Under the pieces are notes generated by a model. It did not search any database. It saw only the letters and a list, made by a program, of their open reading frames with translations, and was not told the DNA's origin. A program made the translations under genes and the position numbers. DNA of 64,000 bases from a candidate division WOR-3 bacterium (GTDB lineage: Bacteria > Hydrothermota > Tepidihabitantia > Tepidihabitantales > CAIPLT01), in assembly GCA_039801505.1 (NCBI GenBank), contig JBDRUV010000001.1:275681-339680 (forward strand), in the 5' to 3' direction. Each line of letters starts with the position of its first letter. The first letter of the stretch is position 1. Below are positions 5,692 through 13,963 of the stretch, in pieces.

Positions 5692-6155
5692 TTACACTCC
5701 TTTCTTATTTTTTGTAATTTGTTTAATTCTACGGTAAACTCCTCGATACTTTGAAACCGTCGATAAACCGACGCGAATCGCACATAAGCCACTTCATCAA
5801 TATTGATCAATTTATTTAATACCCGTTCCCCTAGTTCTTTAGATTCCACTTCTAATTTATACTCATCAGCCAGTTCTTCTTCGATTTCGGAAACCAACTT
5901 TTCAATCGTCTCCTGGCTTACCGGTCGTTTATTACAGGCCAGAGCAATACCCCGGATTAGCTTTTCCCGGTCATAGGCTTCCCGGCGGCCGTCGCTTTTA
6001 ATGATCATTAACGGCACCCGCTCCACATACTCATAAGTTGTAAAGCGGCGCTGACATTCCAGGCATTCTCGACGCCGCCGGACCGCTGAACCATCACGTG
6101 TTGGTCGCGAATCTAACACCCGGTCATTATCTTTATAGCAATAAGGACACTTCAT
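5688..6155 (-). CDS. nrdR: Transcriptional repressor NrdR (zinc ribbon plus ATP-cone)
   Basis: MKCPYC...DSRP...RRRRECLECQRRFTTYE matches NrdR exactly. 155 aa, directly upstream of nrdD. Confidence 0.9.
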   Translation of the reverse strand: MKCPYCYKDNDRVLDSRPTRDGSAVRRRRECLECQRRFTTYEYVERVPLMIIKSDGRREAYDREKLIRGIALACNKRPVSQETIEKLVSEIEEELADEYKLEVESKELGERVLNKLINIDEVAYVRFASVYRRFQSIEEFTVELNKLQKIRKECK

Positions 6156-6199
6156 ATTGTATTGGTTAAATTTTATTACCTAGATATTGTATTGTCAAG
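6154..6199 (-). promoter_or_regulatory. nrdR promoter, TTGACA-17-TAAAAT on the minus strand. Two direct repeats of CAATACAATAT lie 30 bp apart, one in the spacer and one over the start codon; these are candidate NrdR operator sites
   Basis: Reverse complement of 6150-6200 reads TTGACAatacaatatctaggtaaTAAAATttaaccaatacaatATG. The repeated 11-mer has the 30-31 bp phasing typical of tandem NrdR boxes. Confidence 0.35.
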
Positions 6200-6413: not shown

Positions 6414-7889
6414 ATGACTGAGACTTGGCAAAGTCGGACATCTTTTATTTTGGCCTCTATTGGTTCAGCCATTGGACTTGGGAATATCTGGCGATTTCCT
6501 TATATCTGTTATGCGAATGGTGGAGGGGCATTTTTAATACCCTATTTTATTGCCTTGTTTACGGCCGGAATTCCGTTGATGATTTTAGAATTCTCCCTCG
6601 GACACTACTTTAGCGCCCCGGCACCGATGGCCTTAGGCAGGGTCCGTAGACCGTTTGAAGTTTTAGGATGGTTTGCCTTGTTGGTCGGCTTTGGAATTTG
6701 TACCTACTATGCGGTGGTGATGGGGTGGTGTTTCGATTATCTGGGCTTAGCGATAAAAAAAGCTTGGGGCGAGAATACCCAGGAATTTTTCTTCAATAAT
6801 TTCTTAAAAATCTCCTCCGGTCCTTTAGAGATCGGTTCTATCCAAGGTTGGATCGTTTTAGGACTTATTCTTTCCTGGATCTGGATTATAGCTTGCATCT
6901 GGAAAGGTCCAACCACAGTCGGTAAGGTGGTCTATTTTACGGTGACGATCCCTTGGATAATATTAATTGTGTTTGTTATTCGTGGGGTAACTTTGCCGGG
7001 GGCAATTGAAGGGCTTAAGTTTTATCTAACTCCCAACTTCTCTAAGCTCTTAGATTATAAGGTCTGGCTCAATGCCTACTCCCAGGTCTTTTTCTCACTT
7101 ACGATTGGATTTGGAGTTCAGATCACTTATGCCAGTTGTCTCCCGAAGAAAGCTGATGTAATCAATAATGCCTTTTTAATAAGTTTAGCTGATGCTGCGA
7201 CCGCCTTTATTGGTGGTTTTGCTGTCTTTGCCACTCTGGGCTATTATGCGCTGAAAACCGGCCTACCGGTTGAGAGAGTTGTAGCCTCTGGTCCGCAACT
7301 GGCTTTTGTGACCTATCCGACAATTATTAATTTACTACCAATCGGTTCAATAGTATTTGGGGTATTATTCTTTGTGATGCTTCTGACCCTAGGAATTGAC
7401 TCAGCCTTTTCCTTAGTCGAAGCCGGGGCGGCCGGGATTAAAGAGAAGTTTAACCTAGATCGAACAAAAGTAAATATTGGCTTTGGCATCGTAGCCTTAT
7501 TAATTGGAATCATCTATACTACCCGGGGTGGCCTGTATTGGCTAGATATCGTGGACTATTTTATGAACAATTTTGGCTTAATGATTGTGGCACTGCTTCA
7601 ATGTATCTTTATTGGGTATTTCTATAATCTGCGGTCGCTTAGAGATTATGCCAATAATCAGTCCGATTTTAGTATTGGTCCTTGGTGGGATTTTTGTATT
7701 AAGTTTCTTACCCCAGTCGTGTTGGTATTTTTGGTGGCCTCAAATATTATCGATCGTCTACGGTCTTCCTATGGTAATTATCCACGCATTGCTGAGTTTT
7801 TGGGTGGTTGGCTTCTGGTTATATTATTTTTAATCGTTTCTGGAATCCTTTATCACCAAAAGCAGTCTAATAAAATAAAAAGACATTAA
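6414..7889 (+). CDS. Neurotransmitter:sodium symporter (NSS/SNF) family transporter
   Basis: GSAIGLGNIWRFPY...NGGGAFLIPY signature, ~12 TM helices. The longest ORF begins at 6357, but this is placed inside the promoter, so the start was trimmed to the SD-preceded ATG at 6414. Confidence 0.85.
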   Translation: MTETWQSRTSFILASIGSAIGLGNIWRFPYICYANGGGAFLIPYFIALFTAGIPLMILEFSLGHYFSAPAPMALGRVRRPFEVLGWFALLVGFGICTYYAVVMGWCFDYLGLAIKKAWGENTQEFFFNNFLKISSGPLEIGSIQGWIVLGLILSWIWIIACIWKGPTTVGKVVYFTVTIPWIILIVFVIRGVTLPGAIEGLKFYLTPNFSKLLDYKVWLNAYSQVFFSLTIGFGVQITYASCLPKKADVINNAFLISLADAATAFIGGFAVFATLGYYALKTGLPVERVVASGPQLAFVTYPTIINLLPIGSIVFGVLFFVMLLTLGIDSAFSLVEAGAAGIKEKFNLDRTKVNIGFGIVALLIGIIYTTRGGLYWLDIVDYFMNNFGLMIVALLQCIFIGYFYNLRSLRDYANNQSDFSIGPWWDFCIKFLTPVVLVFLVASNIIDRLRSSYGNYPRIAEFLGGWLLVILFLIVSGILYHQKQSNKIKRH

Positions 7890-7894
7890 AATTT

Positions 7895-8035
7895 ATGCCG
7901 ATATTAGCTTGGATAGTATTAATTTTTGCGGTGGTGATCTTGTTCGGCGGCATTATTTATTCCCTAATAAAGATGCGAAATCCCAATCCGAAACAAGGAA
8001 TTAAACCCGGTAAAGGAGGTAACCAAGCCTGTTGA
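7895..8035 (+). CDS. 46-aa single-TM protein immediately downstream of the NSS transporter; possible small accessory subunit (MetS-like arrangement)
   Basis: ATG 6 nt after the transporter stop. MPILAWIVLIFAVVILFGGIIYSLIKMRNPNPKQGIKPGKGGNQAC has a hydrophobic helix plus a basic tail. Absent from the ORF track because it is under 60 aa. Confidence 0.35.
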   Translation: MPILAWIVLIFAVVILFGGIIYSLIKMRNPNPKQGIKPGKGGNQAC

Positions 8036-8056
8036 GGATGCCAAACTGGTAAACCT

Positions 8057-8085
8057 CGGTAGGGGATACGGTCCCCCGGACGGCG
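8057..8085 (+). repeat. GC-rich hairpin element, copy A (CGGTAGGGGATACGGTCCCCCGGACGGCG)
   Basis: Shares GGTAGGGG and TACGGTCCCCC with copy E at 45104. GC-rich island in an AT-rich spacer. Confidence 0.45.
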
Positions 8086-8587
8086 TCATCTTAGCGCGAC
8101 ATAAGTCTGTAGTTTGGGAATTTGGGCGAAGATTCAATCATATTAGTGTGGACTATCCCCTTAAGAATCTTCACCTGACACTTGAGACTTTATTTAGTAC
8201 ATTATTAGTGAGGTTAGTGACGCTCAGCCATATTATGGTTGGCCATTTCCTGAGAACCTCAAAACCCTTAGTTAAAGTTGCTACCCGAAGTCAAACCAAG
8301 AAGTTTACTATATATAGTGTAGTTAATAATTAACCACAATAAACGGAGGGCTAAGGGCGCTTTTCTGTAGTCACCTAGCGATCTGTTAGTTATCTAAACA
8401 AGACCAGCTAACTAGAGGGATATTGTCGTAACTATTTGGCTTATAAGATATTATAATAAATTGATTTAAGTTATTGGTAATTAATACGTTATGCTCAAGG
8501 TATTGCTTGATGACCGGTTGAGGGGTAATGGTATATATATTGGTCGTGGATTTATGAGGTCGGCTTTTTGGGCCGGGCTATTTTTGA

Positions 8588-8685
8588 GTAAAAGTATATA
8601 TAGATGGCGAGTTTTTACATCAAAAGTATATATGTAGGTGATGAGTTTTACCTCAAAAGTATATATAGGTAAAAGTATATATACT
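8588..8685 (+). repeat. Iteron-like array: four AAAAGTATATATA repeats arranged as about 2.5 tandem copies of a 33-bp unit (CAAAAGTATATATGTAGGTGATGAGTTTTACCT)
   Basis: Direct repeats at 8590, 8625, 8658 and 8671, plus a related GGTATATATATTGG at 8530. Lies upstream of the first AAA+ ATPase gene. Confidence 0.5.
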
Positions 8686-8909
8686 GTCGTAAGAGAGGCG
8701 GTAAAAATGCCAACGAGGGTTAGCACAACACCGCTAATGGCGGTTATGAATCATAAAAACCCAGAAAGGGGGTATGGATGGTGTAAGTATCAATCTAAAA
8801 GAAATCTTAATTTAACCAGAAAGGGGGTGAAAACATGGATTTTAGGGCTAGTATTTGATTCCGGGAATGTAACTCCCAATATACCACAAAGAAAGGAGGG
8901 AAAGAGAAA

Positions 8910-9926
8910 ATGGATAACATTTTAGGTAAATATATCGATAAATGTTATAAATATGTAAAAAACGAGGAGAAGATCGCGGCGTTATCCCGCATCTCCTGGG
9001 CCCGTTCGGCCGGTGGTTGTTGGTCAACGAAAGAAGGATATATCCTAAGAGGGGACGTCTTGAAAATTACGGTTGACCAAAAGAATATAGACAAAGATCT
9101 GCGCCAGGCAATTGAGAAACGCGCTCTAATTGAAAAACAAATTAAGCTACTTATCAGAACTGCCAAACGGAGAGGTGTTAAACTGCCATTTGAAGAACTT
9201 GCCCAACGATATGGGCTATCGTCTTTGGAAAAATTGGTTTTTATGACAATTTTTTACAACCGATTATTCAATGTAAAAGACGGAGGCATCCCATACGATC
9301 TTACTGTTAATGAAGTTTTTAAAAAATTAGGAGTCGAACCGAGTAAATATCTTCAAATTGACCGAGCACTTAAGAGGTTAAAGCGGTTGGGATTAATATT
9401 TATAACAATCTCCACCGTATATGTCGACTATTGGGATAAGGATTTTAGGAAGATATCGAAATTGCACTCGTTGTTCCCGGTTTGCTCTAGCAAGATCGAA
9501 ATTAATCCCCAAATTTTTGAATACTTTAAGCTAGATACTCCTATTAATGACAGGCGTAAATTTACTAACAACCCTGATGACAACCCTGATGAATTACCGG
9601 TCGAAATCGAAACCACAATACTTCAAGTCCGAGAACCGAGGATAGATTTTGAGCAAATTATTCTCAATCAGGAACAAACCCAGTTGGTTAATCAAGTGAT
9701 CTATCATGCTAGCCAGGGCATTGAAACTTTATCTAATTGGGGTTTTGATAAAACCATAAAGTATGGCAAAGGGGTGGTGGTGCTGTTTTATGGACCACCT
9801 GGTACTGGCAAGACTGCAACCGCCGAAGCCATTGCCCATCGCTTGGGCAAAAGAATAGGGATTGTGAGCTATGACCAACTTTTAAGTAAATGGTTAGGGG
9901 AGTCAGAAAAAAAAACTTGGTGTTAG
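8910..9926 (+). CDS. AAA+ ATPase paralog 1, N-terminal part. Novel ~250-aa N-domain plus Walker A. The frame ends at an A9 tract and continues in the -1 frame as ORF 9890-10429
   Basis: Strong SD AAAGGAGGG. Ends ...YGPPGTGKTATAEAIA...LGESEKKTWC*. Homologous throughout to the 490-aa protein at 11213-12685. The A9 run is at 9907-9915. Confidence 0.6.
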   Translation: MDNILGKYIDKCYKYVKNEEKIAALSRISWARSAGGCWSTKEGYILRGDVLKITVDQKNIDKDLRQAIEKRALIEKQIKLLIRTAKRRGVKLPFEELAQRYGLSSLEKLVFMTIFYNRLFNVKDGGIPYDLTVNEVFKKLGVEPSKYLQIDRALKRLKRLGLIFITISTVYVDYWDKDFRKISKLHSLFPVCSSKIEINPQIFEYFKLDTPINDRRKFTNNPDDNPDELPVEIETTILQVREPRIDFEQIILNQEQTQLVNQVIYHASQGIETLSNWGFDKTIKYGKGVVVLFYGPPGTGKTATAEAIAHRLGKRIGIVSYDQLLSKWLGESEKKTWC

Positions 9927-10429
9927 CATTTAATGAAGCCCGGGAGACCGATTGTGTTCTACTATTTGACGAGGCTGATAGTCTTTTTGCTTGCCGCCTT
10001 ACTGAGTCACGGAGTGTAGATCGAATGCATAATTATATGACCAATATTCTGATGCAGGAACTAGAGCGATTTGATGGGGTGGTGATTTTAACCACCAATC
10101 GAGAATATGCGTTTGATGAGGCATTTCCGCGTCGGATTCTTTATAAGATTAAGTTTGATATTCCTGGGCCTGCCGAGCGGGCTAGGATCTGGCGGGCCTT
10201 AATACCCCCTGAGGCGCCCTTGGCTCCAGATGTCGATTTTAACCTATTAGCCGAGAAATATGCCCTTACCGGCGGAGAAATTAAAAATGTGATTATAAAA
10301 GCCGCCCTCGAAGGTGCCTCGCAGAATTCGAATATGTTGTCAATGGCATTATTTACTAAATATGCCGAGATCGAACTGGAAAATACAGATCGAAAAGTTA
10401 AACGTCATATTGGTTTTAGGAATGACTAA
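9890..10429 (+). CDS. AAA+ ATPase paralog 1, C-terminal part (Walker B DEAD-like LLFDEAD, sensor and lid). It is in the -1 frame relative to 8910-9926
   Basis: After the A9 tract the frame reads NLVLAFNEARETDCVLLFDEADSLFACRL..., which is collinear with residues ~320-490 of paralog 2. A ~320-bp stretch is 100% nucleotide-identical to 12219-12536. Confidence 0.6.
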   Translation: MVRGVRKKNLVLAFNEARETDCVLLFDEADSLFACRLTESRSVDRMHNYMTNILMQELERFDGVVILTTNREYAFDEAFPRRILYKIKFDIPGPAERARIWRALIPPEAPLAPDVDFNLLAEKYALTGGEIKNVIIKAALEGASQNSNMLSMALFTKYAEIELENTDRKVKRHIGFRND

Positions 10430-10512
10430 TAATTGCTCGAAAAGCAGGTTTCAGGCGCGATATATAACGCTCGATAGCCAATTATACAGATCAACTAAAA
10501 GCTAAAATAGAA

Positions 10513-10556
10513 GGCGGGGTGGTGGTAGGGTACACAGTCCCCTACACCCCCGCCGA
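10513..10556 (+). repeat. GC-rich hairpin element, copy B (GGCGGGGTGGTGGTAGGGTACACAGTCCCCTACACCCCCGCC). It forms a ~17-bp stem and sits 84 nt after the AAA paralog 1 stop
   Basis: Near-perfect inverted repeat with no downstream U-tract. Shares GGTAGGG, TACACAGT and TCCCCTAC with copies C and E. Confidence 0.45.
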
Positions 10557-11212
10557 TAAACCTTACGCAAATAAGCCAGACACGATTAAATTGCACTTAG
10601 GTGGATATTATTTTAACCATAATCAAATCATCACCAGTCTTTCAGCCTGGTATTTGGTGGTTATATTATTGGGATACCCATATCTCAACATTACCCCGAT
10701 GATTAACGATAGCTCTATGTCCCCTAAGCTTGCAGCAAAACTCGGAGGTCTCATTTTAAGTTATAAGTGTTTGATTAACAAAGCATTCTCTAAAAACAGT
10801 CCATCGGACGCAATTATTGTGTGTTGTAAGTCTTTGTTTTATAAATTATTACAAAAATGATATATTTTATGTAATGTTTAAGTCCTTGATAATTAATATC
10901 TTGGAAACACGATCGAAACGATTTTATAAATCATTGTGTATCAAGGCGAAATTTGTTGTTTTATTAGTGTGAACAAGGGGGGTAACTGCCATTATATGTT
11001 AGGAAGACATGTAACGCTGTTAGGAGCAAAAATGCACTGCGATTGGCGGATTATGGAGATAAGAAGGCTGTTATTAGGGAAAACTTTATGGGTTATCATA
11101 TAAAGAGGGGCTATGTTAAACTTCAATAAAGAAAGGAGGTTATATGGACTAAAAATAACCTTAAATCCCAGCAATTTGGCCATAAAAAATAAAGTCAAGA
11201 AAGGAGGATTGA

Positions 11213-12685
11213 ATGAATAGCCAAAAATCAATGGATTTGGATAGCAAAAAATCAATAATAAACTCGTATATTGATAAATGCTATGAGCTAGTTAGGATCC
11301 ATGAGAGATTAGTTAGGCTCTCGCGACAAGAAGGTAGGTGGTTTCCATTCGGCGGTTCCGATTTGGATATAAATGATACCTCAGTTAACAAAACATTCCG
11401 AGAAACATTAAAAGAGAAAGCACGCATTGAAAAAGAACTCAAGAAAATTATACGCCAGGCGAAAGCTCAAGGGTTAACTTTGCCATTTGAGGAAATTGCC
11501 CAAAAGTATAATTTATCGCCATCAGCAAAATTACTGCTCATGGTGGTTTTTTACCATGGAACTCTGGATTCGAGGGACGAAGAGGTAGTGTGTGGACGGA
11601 TTTTTGAGGTTTTGGCTACGAAGCCCAGTGAAAATTTAGAGCTTAGGAGGATAATTAACCAGTTTTTAGAAACTGAACTATTAGAAGAGGCCTCAGATGA
11701 CTCTTGGTTGCTTACATCCCGGTCCCGGCGAGCTGAGCTTTTAAGCAATCTTCAAGTTCGGCTAGGTCCAAAAGTCCTTGAGATTTTAAAACCGGCCCTA
11801 GATCTCAATTTTATAAACCCTCGAGGTTCTAAAAAAATTTTTAATGAGTTGAGGATGAAGCCGAAAGCCCATAAAATTCTTAGTATTCGGGAGCCTCAAT
11901 TGAGCTTTGACCAAATTGTTCATCCTGAGGAGCGACTTCAAATGCTTAATCGGATTATTTTTGATATTAAGTACGGTAATGAAAAATTATTAAAATGGGG
12001 TTTTGATAAAACCATAAAGTATGGCAAAGGGGTGGTGGTGCTGTTTTATGGACCACCTGGCACCGGTAAGACCGCAACTGCCGAGGCTATAGCCTGCGAA
12101 ACTAAAAAGAAACTTGGAGTTGTAAACTACGCACAACTTTTAAACTACTATGTTGGTGAGTCAGAAAAGAATTTGATGAAAGTTTTTAACGAGGCTCGAG
12201 ACGAGAACTGTATATTGCTATTTGACGAGGCTGATAGTCTTTTTGCTTGCCGCCTTACTGAGTCACGGAGTGTAGATCGAATGCATAATTATATGACCAA
12301 TATTCTGATGCAGGAACTAGAGCGATTTGATGGGGTGGTGATTTTAACCACCAATCGAGAATATGCGTTTGATGAGGCATTTCCGCGTCGGATTCTTTAT
12401 AAGATTAAGTTTGATATTCCTGGGCCTGCCGAGCGGGCTAGGATCTGGCGGGCCTTAATACCCCCTGAGGCGCCCTTGGCTCCAGATGTCGATTTTAACC
12501 TATTAGCCGAGAAATATGCCCTTACCGGCGGAGAAATCAAAAATGCCATACTTAAAGCTGTCAAAGATAGTATTTATTTAGGAAATGAGTGTATTACGAT
12601 GGAGTTGCTCTCGAAACACGCCCAGGCTGAGCTGGAAAATGTCAATCGGAAGACTAAGAAGTCAGTAGGATTTAAGGCCGAATGA
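11213..12685 (+). CDS. AAA+ ATPase paralog 2, intact (490 aa; classic clade, SpoVK/Ycf46/Vps4-like core; novel N-terminal domain)
   Basis: Walker A GPPGTGKT, Walker B ILLFDEAD, TTNR sensor-1 and arginine-finger region. SD AAGAAAGGAGG. N-domain shares YIDKCY and LPFEE(I/L)AQ(K/R)Y.LS with paralog 1. Confidence 0.8.
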   Translation: MNSQKSMDLDSKKSIINSYIDKCYELVRIHERLVRLSRQEGRWFPFGGSDLDINDTSVNKTFRETLKEKARIEKELKKIIRQAKAQGLTLPFEEIAQKYNLSPSAKLLLMVVFYHGTLDSRDEEVVCGRIFEVLATKPSENLELRRIINQFLETELLEEASDDSWLLTSRSRRAELLSNLQVRLGPKVLEILKPALDLNFINPRGSKKIFNELRMKPKAHKILSIREPQLSFDQIVHPEERLQMLNRIIFDIKYGNEKLLKWGFDKTIKYGKGVVVLFYGPPGTGKTATAEAIACETKKKLGVVNYAQLLNYYVGESEKNLMKVFNEARDENCILLFDEADSLFACRLTESRSVDRMHNYMTNILMQELERFDGVVILTTNREYAFDEAFPRRILYKIKFDIPGPAERARIWRALIPPEAPLAPDVDFNLLAEKYALTGGEIKNAILKAVKDSIYLGNECITMELLSKHAQAELENVNRKTKKSVGFKAE

Positions 12686-12740: not shown

Positions 12741-12768
12741 TTGACATTTGAGCTATAAAAGTTATAAT
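12741..12768 (+). promoter_or_regulatory. sigma70 promoter TTGACA-16-TATAAT for htrA; the predicted transcription start is at or next to the ATG, giving a leaderless mRNA
   Basis: TTGACA at 12741-12746, TATAAT at 12763-12768, ATG at 12776, no SD. Confidence 0.4.
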
Positions 12769-12775
12769 TACAGAT

Positions 12776-13963
12776 ATGCGACGAATCATCGTCTATCTTG
12801 TTGCTCTCCTTCTGATTATCCTAGGTGGTGCGTTTATCTTATTACCCCGGGCCAGTAAGACGATTGTGCTTCATCAATATGACACCTCGGATCTTATAAA
12901 AAAGACAAGTCTTGAGACCGAGCTTAATAATTCTCGAGTTACAGCCATTGTTCGGGCGGCAAGAAAGGTAAGCCCAGCCGTGGTTTCAATTACTGTGATT
13001 CAGGAACGCATTGTTACCACTGCGCCATTTTTTAGTCCATTTGCTGATCCATTTTTTGACGAGTTCTTTCGAGATTTTTTCCCTCGTCGCCAATATCGTG
13101 AGCAGGTTCAGAGTTTAGGATCTGGGGTTATCATTAGCCCGGATGGCGATATTGTGACAAACGCCCATGTTGTAGAAAAAGCCACAAAAATCAAAGTAAC
13201 TCTACCAGATAATCGCGAGTTTGACGGTGAAGTCGTTGAGATCGATCCTACTTATGACTTGGCTTTAGTACGGGTCAAAGGGAAAAATTTACCATACGCT
13301 GAGCTAGGCAGCTCTGATGATTTAATGATTGGTGAATGGTGTATTGCTCTAGGTAATCCCTTTGGTTTTTTACTTGAGGATGCCCAACCAACTGTTACCG
13401 TTGGTGTAATCTCAGCTGTAAACCGGACAATAAAGTCTAGTCGGGGTGACGAACGGGTTTATCGGAATATGATTCAGACCGATGCCGCTATTAATCCAGG
13501 AAATTCCGGTGGGCCATTAGTAAACGCTTTAGGTGAGGTTATTGGCATAAACACATTTATTTTCTCACGCAGCGGTGGTTCCGAGGGTATTGGCTTTGCG
13601 ATTCCTATAAATGTTGTGAAGAAATTCATTAAAGAAGCCCAAAGCACAGCAAAGAAAAAGATCAGCGAAGCGGAAATCCCGAAAGTGAAGACCAAGATCG
13701 GCCTTATTGTCAGTGATAACAATTATACGCTAATGCGGAAATATCGGCTAACTTCAGCTGAGGGGGTTGTAGTAGTGGAAGTGGAACGAAACTCGATTGG
13801 CGAGATTTTAGGCGTGATGGCAGGCGATATTGTGAAATCACTTAATAACACCCAGCCAAAGAATGCGCAAGATTTAGCAAAAATTGCCGAACAGATAGGC
13901 CGCCAAGTTGATTTAGTTATTGACCGACAGGGCGAAACAATTAGAATGTTTTACCGATACTAA
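12776..13963 (+). CDS. htrA: HtrA/DegP-family periplasmic serine protease (trypsin-like domain plus one PDZ)
   Basis: N-terminal TM anchor, catalytic motifs TNAHV, D and GNSGGPL, C-terminal PDZ. Confidence 0.85.
   Translation: MRRIIVYLVALLLIILGGAFILLPRASKTIVLHQYDTSDLIKKTSLETELNNSRVTAIVRAARKVSPAVVSITVIQERIVTTAPFFSPFADPFFDEFFRDFFPRRQYREQVQSLGSGVIISPDGDIVTNAHVVEKATKIKVTLPDNREFDGEVVEIDPTYDLALVRVKGKNLPYAELGSSDDLMIGEWCIALGNPFGFLLEDAQPTVTVGVISAVNRTIKSSRGDERVYRNMIQTDAAINPGNSGGPLVNALGEVIGINTFIFSRSGGSEGIGFAIPINVVKKFIKEAQSTAKKKISEAEIPKVKTKIGLIVSDNNYTLMRKYRLTSAEGVVVVEVERNSIGEILGVMAGDIVKSLNNTQPKNAQDLAKIAEQIGRQVDLVIDRQGETIRMFYRY

Follow-up and report, generated by a model that had tools for sequence, protein, structure and literature searches.

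A phased direct-repeat array and stand-alone Shine-Dalgarno modules in the apparent control region of a fast-evolving AAA+ ATPase gene pair from a candidate division WOR-3 bacterium

The window analysed here, a 64-kb (64,000-nt) stretch of a candidate division WOR-3 genome, contains two fast-evolving AAA+ ATPase genes, AAA1 and AAA2, and an 875-nt gene-free spacer 5' of AAA1 in which a direct-repeat array, strong Shine-Dalgarno (SD) modules and two mini open reading frames (mini-ORFs) are all located. We conclude that both the array and the SD/mini-ORF modules are part of the control region of this ATPase pair, and the spacer looks like a private control region of the two genes rather than the replication origin of a plasmid or a phage. 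More precisely, we propose, with a probability of roughly 40%, that AAA1 is expressed from a non-consensus promoter regulated through phased protein-binding sites, and that its transcript would continue into a C-poor leader carrying stand-alone SD/mini-ORF elements of the type known as upstream SD stabilisers (STAB-SD) or upstream open reading frames (uORFs). Among the readings offered by the initial annotation of this DNA, multi-site regulator binding and special regulation stay the most plausible.

The array and its relatives occupy the following positions of the window:

8581-8685, + strand: direct-repeat array as a whole, with cores at 8590-8602, 8622-8634, 8655-8667 and 8671-8683.
8530-8543, + strand: degenerate array copy GGTATATATATTGG, 63 nt (2 x 31.5) 5' of copy 1.
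8558-8586, + strand: terminator-like element separating the degenerate copy from copy 1, made of a weak GC hairpin (7-pair stem including several G-T pairs) and a subsequent T run.
8305-8320, no strand assigned: outlying palindromic TA-core element TTACTATATATAGTGT, with 6/6 conserved NrdR-box positions; it is likewise a distant array copy.

All four copies of the array share the 12-mer AAAAGTATATAT without a mismatch (starts 8590, 8622, 8655 and 8671) and lie head-to-tail on the + strand, with start-to-start distances of 32, 33 and 16 nt. The initial annotation had listed four direct copies of a 13-mer at 8590, 8625, 8658 and 8671; the copies are present, but two of these positions were 3 nt too high, and the 13-mer proper, AAAAGTATATATA, is found three times (8590-8602, 8655-8667 and 8671-8683), the copy at 8622-8634 being a 12/13 match, AAAAGTATATATG. 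The description of about 2.5 tandem units of 33 bp agrees with Tandem Repeats Finder, which reports a period of 33, 2.4 copies and 84% matches at 8590-8666 with a score of 103, the top of 20 rows in the window, and the related GGTATATATATTGG is indeed at 8530, with a further, far copy at 8307-8320. Altogether, six (G/C)TATATAT elements are found at 8308, 8531, 8594, 8626, 8659 and 8675, with spacings of 223, 63, 32, 33 and 16 nt. This array is a real, non-random cluster: over the 64 kb, the 13-mer with at most one mismatch is confined to it and strictly clustered, not scattered at a random AT-rich frequency, for a shuffle expectation of 0.32 and with at least four occurrences in 0/100 shuffles.

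The core common to the copies is sharply delimited. Indeed, the 12-mers show 0/72 pairwise mismatches while the ungapped 9-nt flanks differ at 71/108 pairwise positions, a count that overstates the divergence since the array units differ by small indels; a gapped alignment of the copies gives an equally sharp core. The copies are of two subtypes, GTAAAAGTATATATA and TCAAAAGTATATAT, with further diverged copies at 8531 and 8308, so that the array is not the product of one recent duplication. Copy 4 furthermore completes a palindrome, AGTATATATACT. This anatomy suggests a set of sites for one sequence-specific DNA-binding protein recognizing the shared core AAAAGTATATAT. The spacings of 63, 32 and 33 nt between the copies from 8531 to 8659 correspond to multiples of three helical turns, which would place these copies on one face of the helix, the last copy being half-spaced, 16 nt on. 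Phased operator or upstream activating sequence arrays resemble this layout in that a short word recurs on one strand in several copies, at spacings that are helical multiples and within a few hundred nt 5' of a gene devoid of a consensus promoter; unlike them, the present array has no adjacent regulator gene and no known motif match, and its binding is predicted from sequence. Its period of 32-33 nt is also longer than the usual 10-22 nt of response-regulator, AraC or LytTR sites.

The promoter situation of the AAA genes is consistent with such a factor. The real promoters of this organism score 11-12/12 against the sigma-70 consensus, and near-consensus ones precede nrdR (TTGACA-17-TAAAAT), SNF (TTGACA-17-TATCAT) and htrA (TTGACA-16-TATAAT) in the window and recur in the sister species L202 (GCA_026418235.1). 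Neither AAA leader contains a promoter comparable to these three: nothing exceeds 9/12 within 8036-8909, no site at all is found within 8500-8760, and the best + strand site of the spacer is CTGACA-17-TACATT at 8175 (9/12). The promoter of AAA1 is therefore probably atypical or dependent on a factor, and cooperative binding at the array might turn on, or off, a promoter of this kind without the usual TTGACA/TATAAT elements. Other promoter types were compared by eye with the array core and rejected. The core fits none of the -10-only, extended -10, sigma-54, sigma-E/ECF or sigma-32 types; as to the Bacteroidetes-type TAnnTTTG promoter, its -7 word is matched by copies 2 and 3 (minus strand), but the TTTG spacing is wrong. 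A CIRCE operator was rejected too, the TTAGCAC at 8720 having a wrong arm spacing. The htrA promoter (12741-12776), a perfect TTGACA-16-TATAAT, ends 7 nt before the ATG. It thus seems likely that the htrA mRNA has little or no leader and that htrA forms a transcription unit separate from the AAA genes.

Between the array and AAA1, and again ahead of AAA2, lie the translation signals:

8745-8773, + strand: conserved leader block TATGAATCATAAAAACCCAGAAAGGGGGT, which holds SD module 1 and matches L202 7839-7867 at 24/29 positions.
8774-8815, + strand: mini-ORF 1, MDGVSINLKEILI, 13 codons, from ATG 8774 to a TAA ending at 8815.
8816-8858, + strand: SD module 2, CCAGAAAGGGGGT (8816-8828), and mini-ORF 2, MDFRASI, 7 codons, from ATG 8835 to a TGA ending at 8858.
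8888-10429, + strand: SD AAAGAAAGGAGG (8888-8899), which is AAA1's own, and the AAA1 gene from ATG 8910, its frame broken in this assembly by an A9 run at 9907-9915.
11128-11152, + strand: in the AAA2 leader, SD AAAGAAAGGAGG followed by ATG-GAC-TAA (M-D-stop).
11197-12685, + strand: SD AAGAAAGGAGG (at 11197) and the AAA2 gene from ATG 11213, 490 aa, intact.

The near-identical module CCAGAAAGGGGGT is present at 8761 and 8816, rather than at 8760 and 8817 as initially annotated, and in both cases precedes a mini-ORF; the 13- and 7-codon mini-ORFs (8774-8815 and 8835-8858) are as described before, and their being led by an SD is unusual for the genome. The AAA2 leader likewise follows the logic ascribed to it, with AAAGAAAGGAGGTTATATGGACTAA at 11128-11152, AAGAAAGGAGG at 11197 and the ATG at 11213. 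Taken alone, the CCAGAAAGGGGGT pair is within chance, at least two matches with at most two mismatches being obtained in 38/100 shuffles; taken together, the SD cluster is beyond chance. In the window, GAAAGGRGG or AAAGGAGG is found only at 8012 (coding), 8764, 8819, 8891, 11131 and 11199. The longer AGAAAGGRGG is common to all five SD modules, four of which are followed by ATGGA; it allows about 10 nt of pairing with the usual 16S rRNA tail sequence and is restricted, within the window, to the AAA island. By comparison, the SD is weak or missing in most of the approximately 52 long ORFs of the window, the longest matches to the 16S tail (10 nt) being those of the two AAA genes. The stop codon of mini-ORF 1 abuts SD module 2, and an alternative start at ATG 8778, encoding M-V-stop, has a better SD spacing than ATG 8774.

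With AGAAAGGGGG at 8763-8772 and 8818-8827, that is, at -146 and -91 relative to the AAA1 ATG (8910), the leader would present two stand-alone and very strong SDs able to load ribosomes on tiny ORFs ahead of the gene's own SD. These extra SDs may work as STAB-SDs or as position-conserved uORFs, and thereby act on mRNA stability or on translation of the ATPase. As cited in PMC12970973, the STAB-SD of Bacillus thuringiensis cry3Aa is an extra SD in a long leader, far 5' of the start codon, which stabilises the mRNA (Agaisse & Lereclus 1996), and hbs provides another ribosome-binding stabiliser in a 5' untranslated region (5' UTR) (PMC5737220). The AAA1 leader resembles the cry3Aa case by its near-perfect GAAAGGRGG at -146 and -91, by its length and by the addition of these elements to AAA1's own SD; it departs from it by the start and stop codons that come after each extra SD, by the phylum, and by the two copies, with a third in the leader of the paralogue. 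As for uORFs and leader peptides (erm/cat-type attenuation, minimal start-stop ORFs), the likeness resides in an SD with a very short leader ORF whose presence, and not its sequence, is kept in the sister species. The difference is that no alternative hairpins, terminator or conserved stalling peptide are found here and that the SD-to-ATG distance of ORF 1 is poor. The suggestion of attenuation made in the initial annotation is thus not supported, as no terminator-like site or alternative structure was found between the mini-ORFs and AAA1 (8774-8910) and the mini-ORF peptides are not conserved.

The composition of the leaders is equally distinctive. The AAA leaders (8400-8900 and 10850-11250) surpass all other 300-nt stretches of the window in G>C skew, with values of 0.40-0.45 versus a mean of 0.05 (sd 0.11), the skew setting in at about 8440 for AAA1 and about 10900 for AAA2. 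Transcription from the proposed promoter would thus give the mRNA a long C-poor leader. A 6-nt indel, AGATAT at 8446-8451, marks one same-species assembly; it adjoins a perfect TATAAT (8452-8457), where the leader skew begins.

This skew also lends itself to a reading at the RNA level, in which transcription would start 5' of the array (for example from the TATAAT at 8452-8457 or a weak promoter at 8304-8330), the AAAAGUAUAUAU words would be RNA-binding or processing sites in a 5' UTR of about 450-570 nt, and the downstream SDs would protect the processed 5' end as in cry3Aa. The cry3Aa transcript does start at -558 and is trimmed to a STAB-SD-protected form (PMC12970973). At the present locus, the depletion of C on the sense strand (G>C skew of 0.39 over 8441-8909) extends from 5' of the array to the start codon, with a similar AAA2 leader, every array copy is on the sense strand, and the fold of the array is marginally better than that of shuffles (z = -2.35). 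We nevertheless hold this reading to be rather improbable. Rfam returned only two tRNAs for the whole window at gathering thresholds, and nothing for 7700-11400 in a search up to E = 5; shuffled sequences fold as well as the leader (z = -0.39 for 8684-8930, z = 0.0 for 8036-8520); and no promoter of usual quality lies 5' of the array. A period of 32/33 nt, moreover, suits the helical phasing of DNA better than any known RNA-protein register.

Comparison with the sister species L202 indicates which part of the region is retained. HtrA is 81% identical between the two species and the order SNF/MetS - spacer - AAA - htrA - purB is kept, with aligned identities of 76% for the SNF gene and 74% for the AAA domain. 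As the ATPase is 44% identical versus 81% for HtrA, it diverges far faster than its neighbours. Within the leader, the block 8745-8773 is 24/29 identical (83%) to L202 7839-7867, contains ACCCAGAAAGGRGGT and reaches a score attained in 0/300 shuffles; it is the sole conserved block, the rest of the leader being unalignable. In L202, an SD, ACCCAGAAAGGAGGT, is followed there by a 6-codon ORF, MYVGKN, unrelated to the mini-ORF peptides of the window. Immediately 5' of the conserved block, L202 has a direct repeat of its own, made of two 42-nt copies that are 98% identical and 72 nt apart, each with a (TA)5 core, TATATATATA. These repeats do not align with the array, and the resemblance therefore concerns the layout and not the sequence. 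Just 5' of them, L202 7284-7781 retains the remains of another AAA paralogue, corresponding to the N-terminal and linker region (E = 1e-8 when compared with the AAA of L202) and ending within copy 1 of the 42-nt repeat; the locus is thus a decaying, recombining cluster of tandem paralogues.

Such a locus could by itself generate repeats, and the array might be a neutral minisatellite born from slippage and duplication in the AT-rich spacer of a decaying paralogue cluster, the SD/ATGGA modules being leftover AAA gene starts. We regard this explanation as doubtful, yet as one to be taken seriously. The figures of the array in Tandem Repeats Finder are ordinary, related WOR-3 genomes contain several unrelated tandem repeats in their long spacers, one of which has a 33-nt unit and a ATATATATAA core, and the repeat sequence is not conserved in L202. 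Signs of recombination comprise the stretch of about 566 nt shared by AAA1 and AAA2, the chimeric gene of two assemblies described below and the paralogue relic beside the L202 repeats, and the AGAAAGGRGG and ATGGA common to the SD modules could be inherited from gene starts. However, a perfect core between diverged flanks, together with two subtypes, would need several independent duplications of one word; the copy number is the same in three assemblies (three genomes only); SD block 1 has remained 83% identical between the two species amid an unalignable spacer; and the mini-ORF regions have no significant likeness to gene starts beyond the SD (M1 versus G1, p = 0.75), so that decayed gene starts were rejected as the source of the mini-ORFs. 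A decayed AAA gene in the AAA1 spacer was rejected as well, blastx yielding a single 42-aa match (E = 0.05).

The same comparison bears on the status of the locus. The gene order of the window is nrdD-nrdR (minus strand), the SNF transporter, a 46-aa MetS-like peptide (7895-8035), the 875-nt spacer, AAA1 (8910-10429), a 783-nt spacer, AAA2 (11213-12685), htrA, purB and an acyl-CoA dehydrogenase gene. The AAA2 product is 100% identical to a protein encoded on a WOR-3 contig of 553,804 bp. Its synteny with L202 and the lack of origin or mobility features indicate that the locus is chromosomal and at least genus-old, which leaves the earlier view of a foreign island unsupported; in a more distant relative (HtrA 68% identical), no AAA gene is present at this site. 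The array had likewise been compared to the iterons of plasmid or phage origins. Such iterons, whether of a plasmid, a phage or an integrated element, or else a partition site, would account for helically phased direct repeats in an AT-rich stretch (four cores plus a copy 63 nt upstream, at least three repeats being the threshold) next to AAA+ ATPases with a weak N-terminal winged-helix signal, and the in-phase tandem repeats in AT-rich DNA do recall the origins of pSC101, R6K, F, P1 and lambda. Unlike in these systems, the array has no initiator gene, DnaA boxes or mobile context, it sits at a conserved chromosomal locus, and its core is 12 nt long versus 17-22 nt for iterons. No Rep, DnaA, ParA/B, partition, integrase or transposase gene is found in the neighbourhood of the array, and the ATPases belong to the classical CDC48/Vps4-like clade and not to the initiator clade. 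DnaA boxes are at chance (20 found versus 17.6 expected, unclustered), the cumulative GC skew does not turn here, no inverted partner of the array exists in the 64 kb, and BLAST found no match of the spacer in 72,556 plasmid and 50,697 phage records. An origin is therefore almost certainly the wrong interpretation. Pattern scans for pairs of the 12-mer gave 107 unrelated AT-rich matches in viral contigs, mostly giant-virus metagenome-assembled genomes (MAGs), which were uninformative, and 82 unrelated AT-rich matches in genome contigs, such as a dispersed repeat in a Prevotella MAG.

A known regulator encoded nearby also deserves attention, as the TA-rich 16-mers spaced by 32-33 nt could be degenerate NrdR boxes through which the dNTP-sensing repressor, whose gene lies 2.4 kb upstream, would extend its control to the AAA genes. 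NrdR sites consist of paired 16-bp AT-rich boxes with 15-16-bp linkers and centres three helical turns apart (PMC12051234); the positions conserved in the box are C4, A6, A8, T9, T11 and G13, and the contacts at C4 and G13 are critical (PMC13584703). The array shares with such operators an AT-rich core, centres three helical turns apart, the proximity of nrdR and one full 6/6 box at 8305-8320. Its cores, 32-33 nt apart, leave linkers of 16-17 bp, within the 14-17 bp of a two-box site, and A6, A8, T9, T11 and G13 are kept in copies 1 and 3. The full box and copy 4 are also the only palindrome matches (at most three mismatches) in 64 kb, for 0.25 expected, and the genuine nrdR operator of the genome (6147-6192) has the same layout. 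On the other hand, position 4 is a G and not a C in all four array cores (AAAGTATATATAGNNN), copy 4 has in addition C13 instead of G13, the downstream gene encodes an AAA ATPase and not a ribonucleotide reductase, the six-position pattern occurs at chance frequency (23 found versus 20 expected), and L202 has no such array. An NrdR-related operator is, on balance, most unlikely.

The operator in the nrdR-nrdD promoter is a textbook one (minus strand, 6147-6198): a box, ATACAATATCTAGGTA, fills the spacer of TTGACA-17-TAAAAT and a second one, ATACAATATGAAGTGT, 14 nt on, overlaps the nrdR start codon (boxes at 6192-6147). The lone NrdR-like box TTACTATATATAGTGT (8305-8320) has a weak partner, CCACAATAAACGGAGG, at 8334-8349 (linker of 13) and no gene nearby, and a weak TTTACT-15-AATAAT at 8304-8349 mimics the layout of the nrdR promoter.

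A bolder scenario would make the locus a self-contained and previously undescribed circuit of a conflict or stress ATPase module, in which the AAA ATPases themselves would bind the phased AAAAGTATATAT sites, or NrdR would control them through half-boxes, and the SD/mini-ORF modules would form a ribosome-sensing switch; we judge it distinctly improbable. The N-terminal part of the AAA proteins gives a weak winged-helix signal (PF22977, E = 3.5e-4), its top Foldseek matches are MarR proteins (E >= 0.03), and it is predicted to be a helical hairpin with a winged-helix-like fold. The best match of the ATPases in the defence library is IetA, far under the cut-off.

Several observations weigh against phased regulator sites acting on the AAA1 promoter. 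No array-binding protein can be named, and no regulator gene is present in the AAA island. The array is unchanged in two same-species assemblies that are 99.2-99.8% identical, and as its carriers are of the same species only, they provide no evolutionary test of the core; its sequence is, as said, not conserved in L202. The onset of the skew at about 8440 precedes the array and fits a transcribed array rather than one located 5' of the start site. As tandem repeats are common in the long spacers of related WOR-3 bacteria, some of the array may be neutral. With respect to the leader, the ATG of mini-ORF 1 (8774) is just 1 nt past the SD core, and the mini-ORF peptides are unlike between species (MDGVSINLKEILI and MDFRASI in the window versus MYVGKN in L202).

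The AAA genes themselves differ among the assemblies. The A9 homopolymer at 9907-9915 divides AAA1 into the ORFs 8910-9926 and 9890-10429, and two assemblies of the same species, GCA_039801585.1 and GCA_965649175.1, have A7 at that run and an intact 505-aa AAA frame; the A9 run may result from a sequencing error, reflect a phase switch prone to slippage or mark a real pseudogene. AAA1 and AAA2 are near-identical over about 566 nt (9724-10289 and 11980-12545) with N-terminal halves about 30% identical, and the two assemblies just mentioned carry a single chimeric AAA gene joined across this stretch, which reflects either gene conversion with assembly collapse or a real deletion polymorphism. 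GC-rich long hairpins of the GGGGA...TCCCC type without a U run come after the AAA gene in both species (10513-10556 in the window, L202 9684-9732), and in the window also after the MetS-like gene (8056-8080).

Beyond the sister species, four other WOR-3 homologues of the AAA genes lie in different contexts, with upstream regions devoid of similarity to the AAA1 leader, and the metagenome loci retrieved for AAA1 are three distant relatives only (41-42% identity), without repeats. In related WOR-3 genomes, tandem repeats lie in gene-free stretches of 1.5-1.9 kb 5' of htrA (L209 5602-5667 and 6632-6775; L206 6339-6450), one of these spacer repeats being the 33-nt unit with the ATATATATAA core, and spacers of this kind, long and repeat-bearing, appear characteristic of the lineage. 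Two other WOR-3 AAA homologues have leaders that are 75% conserved (L196 4860-5003 and L197 4855-5003), with TTGACA/TTGACC-17-TATAAT/TATATT, the hairpins CAGAAGT..ACTTCTG and TTGTCAGA..TCTGACAA, and, immediately preceding the SD, a terminator-like hairpin that has a U run; this leader may be an attenuator or riboswitch-like.

The finding has no bearing on replication origins or mobile DNA, and its lesson in this respect is not to call phased AT-rich direct repeats iterons when no initiator gene accompanies them. If the proposed control is real, the locus would be a compact case of an uncultured WOR-3 bacterium controlling a rapidly diversifying AAA+ pair by means of a private operator array combined with additional sites of ribosome loading, against a genomic background in which SD signals are weak or missing for most genes. 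It would also supply a defined 12-mer for DNA-affinity work and a conserved 29-nt leader block for reporter tests.

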